Virus record (IMG/VR): IMGVR_UViG_3300045988_163776
Coordinates: 128,001-155,695 of that record
Length of the DNA: 27,695 nucleotides
Direction: 5' to 3' (one strand)
From: a virus
A model generated the notes under the pieces. The model made no database searches. It was given only the letters and a program-made list of their open reading frames with translations, and was not told the DNA's origin. The translations under genes and the position numbers were made by a program. Positions 21,694 to 22,752 of the stretch are shown one piece after another (the stretch's first letter is position 1; every line of letters starts with the position of its first letter).

Positions 21694-22225
21694 ATGGCTA
21701 AAATAAAGAAAATAAAAGATAATAATGGCACTACTATTTACCCTCTTACCTCGGTTGATGTAGTCTTTGACAAAAATGGTAAGACTTTGACCGGGGGGGG
21801 TGCTAAGTTTTATAGCTGGTCCTGATGATGACTTAAAGAATAATCCAACTATTAATTCTATCATAGCTTAGAACCTCACTACTAGTCTCTCCCCAAGAGG
21901 AGGTAGAGATTATGTAAGTGTTTTGTGCTTAGATAATAAATATATTCGTACTTGGTCGTTTTATAAGAAATCAGCAGCCTCGCCTGCGGAAAAAGGAGAC
22001 AAATATAATGCAAGACTCTCTGGAAGTGGAATTCTTGTATTTTGCATGACGGAATAGTCACCAAATCATATTGATGACGCCTATTTTTATCCATTTGAAT
22101 TATTAGGTACTAATTAGTATTTTAAATAGATAAACGGAATATCTTTTGATACTGAGAGCATTAATGGATTTGTAGACCCAATGGGAGATTGGGATGCTTA
22201 TTGGGTATTATTCAAAAAAGTATAA
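21694..22225 (+). CDS. receptor-binding/fibre cassette A; N-terminal MAKIKKIK module joined to the C-terminal domain only after a +1 frame change at a G8 tract; 4 in-frame TAGs downstream
   Basis: The start frame ends at TGA 21823. The +1 frame is open from the G8 tract (21793-21800) to TAA 22223, with TAGs at 21869, 22055, 22115 and 22127. Confidence 0.65.
21793..21800 (+). repeat. G8 homopolymer inside fibre cassette A
   Basis: The context GACC-GGGGGGGG-T stands out in a roughly 30% GC genome. The same context recurs at 22410-22417. Confidence 0.95.
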
Positions 22226-22278
22226 TTAAAGAGAATAAATTAATATAATATTTTATTCACTTAATTTATTCTCTTTAA
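22226..22278 (+). terminator. perfect 18-bp hairpin after fibre cassette A
   Basis: Stem ttaaagagaataaattaa/ttaatttattctctttaa with a 17-nt loop. Confidence 0.6.
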
Positions 22279-22307
22279 TATAAAAAAATAAAAGGAGAGA
22301 ATAAATT

Positions 22308-22752
22308 ATGGCACAAATTAAAAAATTAAAGCAAGGGGAGACAACGATTTTCCCAATGACAGATGCAAGTGCTGTACAATACGCAGGTAAAACTCTCTCG
22401 GATATGACCGGGGGGGGTCTATAGTACCCAACCCGTAAAAATTGGCACTTGGATTAATGGAAAGACAATATATAGAGAAATAAAAGAAATAGATTTTGCA
22501 TAGATAGATAAAACAGCGGACCATTTTTCATCAAATCTATCAGATTTTGGTATTTCTATAACAAAGACTGGAGGTTTACTTAATTTATATATTATAAGTT
22601 TTGCTTTTCCTTTAGATTCTGCAACTAATCAAGAAATTGGGTTTGTTTATACGCCAAATGAATTTTTAAAAGGTATAAAAGATGGGAATATAACAGAGTC
22701 ACTGTTTATTGAACCAATATATGCAATTATTACTTATGTTTCTTTAGACTAA
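22308..22752 (+). CDS. receptor-binding/fibre cassette B; MAQIKKLK module joined to the C-terminal domain (YSTQPVKIGTWINGKTIYREI...) only after a +1 frame change at a G8 tract
   Basis: AAAGGAGAG RBS. The start frame ends at TAA 22455. The +1 frame is open from the G8 tract (22410-22417) to TAA 22750, with one TAG at 22501. Confidence 0.7.
22410..22417 (+). repeat. G8 homopolymer inside fibre cassette B
   Basis: GACC-GGGGGGGG-T, at the position homologous to the tract in cassette A. Confidence 0.95.

Follow-up and report, generated by a model that had tools for sequence, protein, structure and literature searches.

Why would two neighboring genes of one phage each be split, at the same place, by the same run of eight guanines? 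The question is raised by a stretch of 27,695 nucleotides (hereafter, the window) from IMG/VR virus record IMGVR_UViG_3300045988_163776, positions 128,001 to 155,695, which carries a tandem array of small paralogous genes. The first two, gene 1 and gene 2, open with a common N-terminal anchor module that runs into a G8 tract; the start frame then closes early, while the coding sequence of a divergent C-terminal head domain lies in the +1 frame. We propose that the two G runs are probably hypermutable contingency tracts, which would undergo phase variation at the DNA level by slipped-strand mispairing. The features concerned, with window positions and strand, are the following.

21694..21792, + strand: N-terminal anchor module of gene 1, 33 codons (MAKIKKIKDNNGTTIYPLTSVDVVFDKNGKTLT); the module is present on 69 representative protein clusters
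21793..21800, + strand: poly-G tract 1, G8, predicted OFF, head in the +1 frame; relatives have G7, G8, G9, G10 or G11
21694..21825, + strand: truncated OFF product of gene 1, 43 amino acids, ...TGGGAKFYSWS and then TGA; the exact peptide is P0033, on 3 public contigs
21800..22225, + strand: head-domain open reading frame (ORF) of gene 1, +1 frame, 141 codons, 4 of them TAG in frame, closed by TAA; the in-frame full-length homolog P0004 (177 amino acids) is 95% identical
22308..22409, + strand: N-terminal anchor module of gene 2, 34 codons (MAQIKKLKQGETTIFPMTDASAVQYAGKTLSDMT)
22410..22417, + strand: poly-G tract 2, G8, predicted OFF, head in the +1 frame; relatives have G8, G9 or G10 in DNA, and peptides also imply G6 and G11
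22308..22457, + strand: truncated OFF product of gene 2, 49 amino acids if TAG is sense or 38 if TAG is a stop; public contigs encode the exact peptides (P0047 and P0049)
22417..22752, + strand: head-domain ORF of gene 2, +1 frame, 111 codons, 1 of them TAG in frame, closed by TAA; the in-frame homologs P0001 and P0002 (148 amino acids) read TGGGVYSTQPVKIGTW
22813..23280, + strand: gene 3, a tract-less paralog with the same anchor module, always in frame, 155 amino acids with TAG read through

The tracts stand out from the rest of the window, which has a GC content of 31.1%. A scan for runs of six or more G or C returned these two alone, bearing out the sequence-only reading, which had singled them out as the only long G runs and had placed both in a GACC-G8-T context. 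The 13-mer GACCGGGGGGGGT occurs twice in the window and not once in 100 dinucleotide-preserving shuffles. Between the N-terminal modules of genes 1 and 2, TGACC-G8-T is the sole perfectly matching 14-mer, the remainder having ~60-65% DNA identity. Codon usage was considered as the source of the G run and rejected: GGG makes up 9% of the Gly codons in the window, and none of the 23 other Gly-Gly dipeptides is written GGG-GGG, the longest G run among them being 3. We count the tract as selected and not as an effect of codon usage.

Translation agrees with what had been read from the letters about the reading frames. In both genes, a module of 33-34 residues with the consensus MA(K/Q)IKK(I/L)K..T(I)(Y/F)P(L/M)T..(A/V)V...GKTL(T/S) leads straight into the tract, so that the tract marks the junction between the common module and a divergent C-terminal ORF. 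The start frame stops early; in gene 2 the first stop under the standard code is the TAG at 22422-22424 (38 amino acids), and if TAG is sense the frame ends at 22457. One G fewer or two G's more, that is G7 or G10, would fuse anchor and head in either gene, with the junction peptides KTLTGG(G)VLSFIAGPDDDLK (…KTLTGG(G)VLSF…) for gene 1 and TLSDMTGG(G)VYSTQPVK for gene 2. Gene 3 likewise lacks a tract, as had been stated, and reads CTTAGTGATTATTATTTA at the homologous position. As it stands, the window genome is thus predicted to be OFF/OFF.

We compared the tracts with those of relatives, found in Logan, ENA and IMG/VR using the fused proteins, the stump peptides and a neighboring gene as queries. 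Three assemblies match the window at 100% identity, namely an ENA scaffold of 155.7 kb and two from run ERR636392, a human gut metagenome, and each of them is G8/G8. Beyond these, the searches yielded ~18 independent metagenomic genomes with ~94-96% nucleotide identity to the window. Read from DNA, the gene 1 tract is G7 in L009/L010, G8 in the window and L004, G9 in L003 and L032-L040, G10 in L005, L006 and L008, and G11 in L007 (as ACG + G10). The gene 2 tract is G8 in the window, L035, L036 and L040, G9 in L007 and L033, and G10 in L003, L004 and L037; no G7 or G11 was found among these DNA sequences. No further G or C run of six or more occurs in the locus of any relative, with 5-27 kb of flank examined. 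The frame follows the length: G7 (TGGV...) and G10 (TGGGV...) are in frame, G8 needs +1 and G9 needs -1. This rule holds in every allele, including those with an unrelated head domain, and the products fall into two classes, with 7 or 10 G's giving 140-177 amino acids and other lengths giving stumps of 37-50.

A second and larger sample came from proteins. Truncated stumps and full-length forms have been called as genes in a public protein collection, and on more than 120 public contigs they reveal the length of the tract behind them. For gene 1, these lengths are 5 (1 contig), 7 (4), 8 (27), 9 (26), 10 (20), 11 (1) and 12 (2); for gene 2, they are 6 (1 contig), 8 (18), 9 (13), 10 (5) and 11 (3). 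For the G9 stump P0032 by itself, the collection has index entries in 37 blocks. Occasional variants have an interrupted tract (TEGG in P0015 and P0061). Comparison with related genomes, which the sequence-only reading had named as a check, therefore uncovers length variation from G7 to G11 in DNA and from G5 to G12 in peptides, and both lengths predicted to be ON are present in nature. Rather than a uniform G7, or a lack of both fusion product and variation, the relatives hold variable tracts together with full-length fused genes.

Several pairs of alleles differ in almost nothing but the tract. The gene 1 alleles of L004 (G8) and L006 (G10) have 0 differences in the 518 nucleotides outside the tract, and those of L005 (G10) and L034 (G9) have 1 in 524. 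For gene 2, L035, L036 and L040 (G8) have 0 differences from L037 (G10) in 437 nucleotides. Tract length evidently mutates much faster than the sequence around it. At the same time, the head ORF is open and full-length in every OFF allele, and the pairwise ratio of nonsynonymous to synonymous polymorphism (pN/pS) of the head ORFs is 0.14-0.64 in all informative comparisons. Two contigs start at the exact first G of a tract: L001 (IMG/VR UViG_3300045988_155865) at tract 2, and L027 (Logan ERR636392, the window's own sample) at tract 1. A de Bruijn graph would break at a tract if the sample also contained reads in which that tract is longer, and these breaks suggest, as an interpretation and not a measurement, that the assembly graph branched at coexisting tract lengths.

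Variation from G5 to G12 among near-identical genomes, with both ON lengths found, supports phase variation by slipped-strand mispairing, and we infer replication slippage as its cause. According to this model, mispairing during replication of the phage DNA would add or remove G's at a rate far above that of point substitution, and each change of length would switch translation past the anchor module of 33-34 amino acids. A tract of 7 or 10 G's would yield an anchor-Gly2/3-head protein (140-177 amino acids, ON), and any other length would leave the stump (37-50 amino acids, OFF). Genes 1 and 2 would then be accessory switches in a tandem array of two or three small fibre-tip genes, with gene 3 as the constitutive default. 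Because all paralogs carry the same anchor module, they presumably dock at a single common site on the virion, and for the same reason the combination of ON and OFF states would decide which heads are displayed. A single burst would consist of phages with different sets of head domains, a form of bet-hedging for adsorption or host range.

The long C-terminal ORFs were rightly placed in the +1 frame by the sequence-only reading, which left out that they depend on recoding of TAG (4 in-frame TAG in gene 1, 1 in gene 2). The data are consistent with head ORFs of genes 1 and 2 that are open only because the phage reads TAG, a codon that it appears to recode as sense in its late genes, as Gln. In-frame TAGs number 3-10 per late gene (window 15039-27525) and are almost absent from the early genes (1-14500). 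The assignment to Gln is made because TAG stands opposite CAG or CAA in relatives in 11 of the 16 substitutions. A candidate decoder is encoded in the window:

16887..16974, + strand: suppressor tRNA with anticodon CTA, 88 nucleotides, by which TAG would be readable as sense in late genes, including the head ORFs

ARAGORN reports 16 tRNA genes in all (7380-16974). Two of them have abnormal anticodon loops, at 11037-11109 (4-base 'gatt') and 13082-13156 (2-base 'aa'), and could be frameshift-suppressor-like or pseudogenes. Amid the tRNA genes is an HNH or homing-endonuclease-like gene (15039-16001) that has 10 TAG codons in frame.

The tract also marks a boundary of sequence exchange. Up to the tract, gene 1 alleles are identical at 95-98 of 98 nucleotides, and the next 60 nucleotides can be unrelated. 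Heads of A type and B type are unrelated (about 30% identity) from 6-7 nucleotides past the tract, and homology between the alleles returns 3' of the stop codon. Since homology flanks unrelated heads, exchange takes place by whole head cassettes, whose 5' joint is the tract. We observed at least three unrelated or divergent types of gene 1 head cassette (A, A' and B; compare window 21800-22225 with L003 9603-9920). The gene 2 cassette occurs in about half of the genomes and is absent from L005, L006, L008, L009, L032, L034, L038 and L039. Each gene of the array has its own Shine-Dalgarno sequence, and a hairpin follows both gene 1 and gene 2:

22225..22279, + strand: AT-rich hairpin 3' of gene 1 with 26-nucleotide arms, at the cassette boundary
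22752..22780, + strand: perfect, terminator-like hairpin 3' of gene 2 with 13-nucleotide arms

Other phages, related and more distant, show what else can occupy the junction. In the related phage L028 (1-663), a gene 2 homolog directly follows a collagen-like gene, and its junction, ATC TAG GAA GGG TTC, has no G tract and an in-frame TAG in the linker. This allele equals the G10 ON form in length, and G10 would for that reason be the native ON length. In the distant phage L030 (38.8% GC, ~76% nucleotide identity in the module), the gene 1 homolog carries G9 where anchor meets head, so the tract has persisted despite considerable divergence. Two other genes of L030 (a and b, 2964-3945) and one of L041 (1314-1890) combine an anchor with a long open head ORF that is offset by -1 at a G4 run, with the junction sequence GTGGGGAA or CTGGGGAA (in longer form GTGGGGAAC, CTGGGGAAC and GTGGGGAAA). 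None of the three has an internal start codon, and one more G would join anchor to head. The in-frame homolog P0097 (..FIGEN..) likewise suggests that one extra G would fuse these frames. The -1 offset may reflect a programmed shift or locked-OFF alleles. We looked for relatives of L030 gene a and found none. When IMG/VR was scanned for the motif I-[YF]-P-x-T with a run of at least G7 behind it, the 29 matches were attributable to chance, and no further anchor-module gene emerged.

What the genes encode is suggested mainly by their surroundings. The array is placed between a gene for a collagen-repeat fibre protein and a putative lysin that joins peptidase_C1 to SLH. The fibre gene lies immediately upstream:

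20938..21540, + strand: collagen-repeat fibre protein, 200 amino acids; matches Pfam Collagen and, via its collagen repeats, PHROG tail-fibre families

A full hidden Markov model search placed the anchor module at the N-terminus of the 69 protein clusters noted above. In other phages the module is joined to pectate-lyase-like, GDSL esterase, Kelch propeller and DUF285 repeat domains, combinations that are characteristic of tail spikes and fibres. Given this context, the swapped and fast-evolving heads, and the company that the anchor module keeps, genes 1-3 likely encode fibre-tip or receptor-binding proteins. The earlier label of receptor-binding genes is thus plausible from context, and neither a structure nor a family match could be added to it.

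Downstream of the array, the putative endolysin, a fusion of papain-like peptidase_C1 and an SLH domain, is followed by a radical SAM protein (window 23312-24241 and 24509-25759). Among 50,697 phage records searched with tblastn and megablast, we found no relatives of the cassette, only distant homologs of the peptidase in Thermoanaerobacterium and Parageobacillus phages. Because the homologs of this SLH-domain lysin sit in those phages, a Firmicutes-type host is suggested. IMG/VR contributed a single relative, the contig broken within tract 2. A scan of JGI metagenomes with the lysin recovered distant peptidases only, a scan of GTDB genomes with the gene 1 module gave no match and hence no hint of a prophage or host, and a further profile search for homologs added no new proteins. 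Farther downstream in the same genome, L025 (13638-21162) encodes a DUF2828/DUF7788 protein, a 918-amino-acid SLH-domain protein and an 825-amino-acid protein with a major-vault-protein shoulder domain; these are unusual phage cargo.

A number of observations weigh against phase variation in receptor-binding genes. OFF is the consensus state in the majority of cases (~70% of gene 1 contigs and ~87% of gene 2 contigs), counts that include the same samples assembled by different pipelines, and the ON loci L005-L010 are biased towards ON because a fused query found them. Despite these caveats, the spread of lengths from G5 to G12 is unambiguous. The frequency of ON is not above the 1/3 expected from random length, and therefore either the frame is under little selection at the level of the consensus, or expression of OFF alleles takes some other route. 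Switching within a population is something we infer from assembled contigs. The -1 offsets in L030 and L041 may hint at ribosome- or RNA-level shifting in this fibre-tip family. On the side of function, Pfam and PHROGs were uninformative for the three fused proteins, apart from a weak match of the anchor module to phrog_6907 (unknown function), and a profile search of PDB returned one spurious immunoglobulin match only. AlphaFold2, run on P0001 and P0004 with shallow alignments, gave unusable models (predicted local distance difference test scores of 38.9 and 34.4).

Some of these points could be accommodated if the junction between anchor and head is a deliberate site of frame change at two levels: a -1 shift of the RNA or ribosome at G4 in L030/L041, and a heritable G7-G12 switch in the DNA of the window lineage. 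The -1 shift would make much anchor-only peptide and little full-length protein. In the window lineage the junction would have expanded to the G7-G12 tract, which would also mark the crossover point for head exchange. If this is true, OFF alleles would be low expressers and not nulls. We regard this two-level arrangement as a tentative idea and on the whole improbable.

Also unlikely, in our estimate, is an explanation that dispenses with the DNA switch, in which slippage of RNA polymerase or of P-site tRNA-Gly on the G run yields full-length protein from a tract of any length. In that case, tract length in DNA would be almost neutral, and a low and constant level of full-length protein would accompany an abundant anchor-only peptide. 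This would fit with G8, G9 and G10 being about equally common and ON not being enriched, with head ORFs that stay intact in OFF alleles, with the rarity of GGG among Gly codons, and with the three genes of distant relatives that need -1 at GTGGGGAA or CTGGGGAA, lack an internal start and have open heads. Runs of eight or more are, in principle, also long enough for transcriptional slippage. However, no length or frame is fixed, and +1 states are as common as -1 states. Downstream of the tract, no stable structure was predicted (fold z = 0.99, 0.58 and -1.10), and the downstream sequence is wholly different between alleles with the same tract. In-frame G7 and G10 alleles exist, as do in-frame alleles without a tract. 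Furthermore, the poly-G tracts of Campylobacter and its phages give clear ON/OFF phenotypes. A fixed programmed frameshift, which the sequence-only reading had offered as one option, is disfavored on the same grounds, because all three frame states are common, in-frame alleles exist, no downstream RNA structure was found and downstream sequence differs between alleles; a fixed +1 shift was rejected outright, since tract length is not conserved.

Genes 1 and 2 might instead be decaying pseudogenes, dispensable remnants that were inactivated at a fragile site. The majority of OFF states would be expected from decay, as would the loss of gene 2 from about half of the genomes and the phages in which gene 1 is OFF and gene 2 missing (L032, L034, L038 and L039). 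Decay should leave other marks as well, yet none of the about 20 head ORFs has a second disabling mutation, their pN/pS is <1, ON and OFF alleles are identical outside the tract, and the tract is conserved in a distant lineage while G-runs are avoided elsewhere. We therefore find the pseudogene explanation very unlikely. Least credible of all is an error of homopolymer sequencing or assembly over a tract that is in truth uniformly G7 or G10: poly-G is error-prone on some platforms and two contigs break at the tracts, but G8/G8 was obtained in all three assemblies of the window genome, identical OFF peptides turn up on 7-37 contigs of different projects, lengths span 5-12 in both directions, and, against three relatives, the two tracts are the only uncompensated homopolymer length differences inside coding sequences (differences in A/T runs are intergenic only, with no A/T homopolymer frameshifts in other coding sequences), so that clean neighboring genes and reproducible assemblies together disfavor a general homopolymer artefact.

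Contingency tracts switched by slipped-strand mispairing have well-known counterparts in bacteria, where poly-G/C phase variation affects surface genes of Campylobacter, Haemophilus and Neisseria. The window tracts resemble these in having a homopolymer within an ORF, frameshift-mediated ON and OFF states and a unimodal spread of lengths around 8-10; they differ in that a virus carries them and that their replication falls to phage or host machinery. Other devices for switching phage tropism are the diversity-generating retroelement of Bordetella phage BPP-1 and the invertible tail-fibre segments of Mu and P1. These, too, obtain alternative receptor-binding ends from one genome, but the mechanism is entirely different, and we saw no reverse transcriptase or invertase near the cassette. 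Programmed frameshifts also occur in phage tail genes, as in lambda G/GT (-1 at GGGAAAG) and Listeria phage PSA (+1). As in those cases, overlapping frames in virion genes would give two products, and the slippery site is G-rich. Whereas lambda and PSA have a fixed sequence and frame, tract length and offset vary in the phages described here, and in-frame alleles are common.

The closest parallel lies in Campylobacter phages of the genus Fletchervirus, in which, according to the accounts of Sorensen et al. 2021 (Cell Rep 35:109214) given in PMC12633550, PMC10579305 and PMC11959909, poly-G tracts of 7-11 in receptor-binding genes create phase-variable subpopulations. Both systems have G tracts of ~7-11 inside fibre or receptor-binding genes, and in Fletchervirus, as those papers describe it, the length switches expression ON or OFF and produces a mixed phage population. 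In contrast, the window phage is unrelated, ~155 kb, 31% GC, TAG-recoded, uncultivated and from the human gut, and its case is known from comparative metagenomics and not from phenotype. Its tract falls exactly between anchor and head in small paralogs arranged in tandem, and a tract-less paralog would serve as the constitutive default. Contingency loci have also been described in T2/T4 and other phages, where simple-sequence repeats of at least 6 nucleotides in ORFs allow reversible frameshifts and bet-hedging, and in coliphages such repeats are under-represented in tail-fibre genes (Gomez, Barrick and Waters 2025 preprint, PMC12633550). Unlike in the coliphages, the sole two such repeats in the 27.7 kb window fall in fibre-tip genes, as long G runs in an AT-rich genome.

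Phase-variable receptor-binding genes of phages have been known essentially only from Campylobacter Fletchervirus, 'an exceptional case' in the wording of a 2025 review (PMC11959909). What appears to be the same device is now found in a phage that is uncultivated, TAG-recoded and unrelated to Fletchervirus, and that turns up in many human-gut metagenomes. For annotators, this means that 'frameshifted' fibre genes beside G runs in such phages are real, and are not to be corrected or discarded. Public assemblies already contain natural alleles of both states, ON and OFF, and whether gut phages hedge their host range by means of contingency loci is a question that could be tested with existing read sets.

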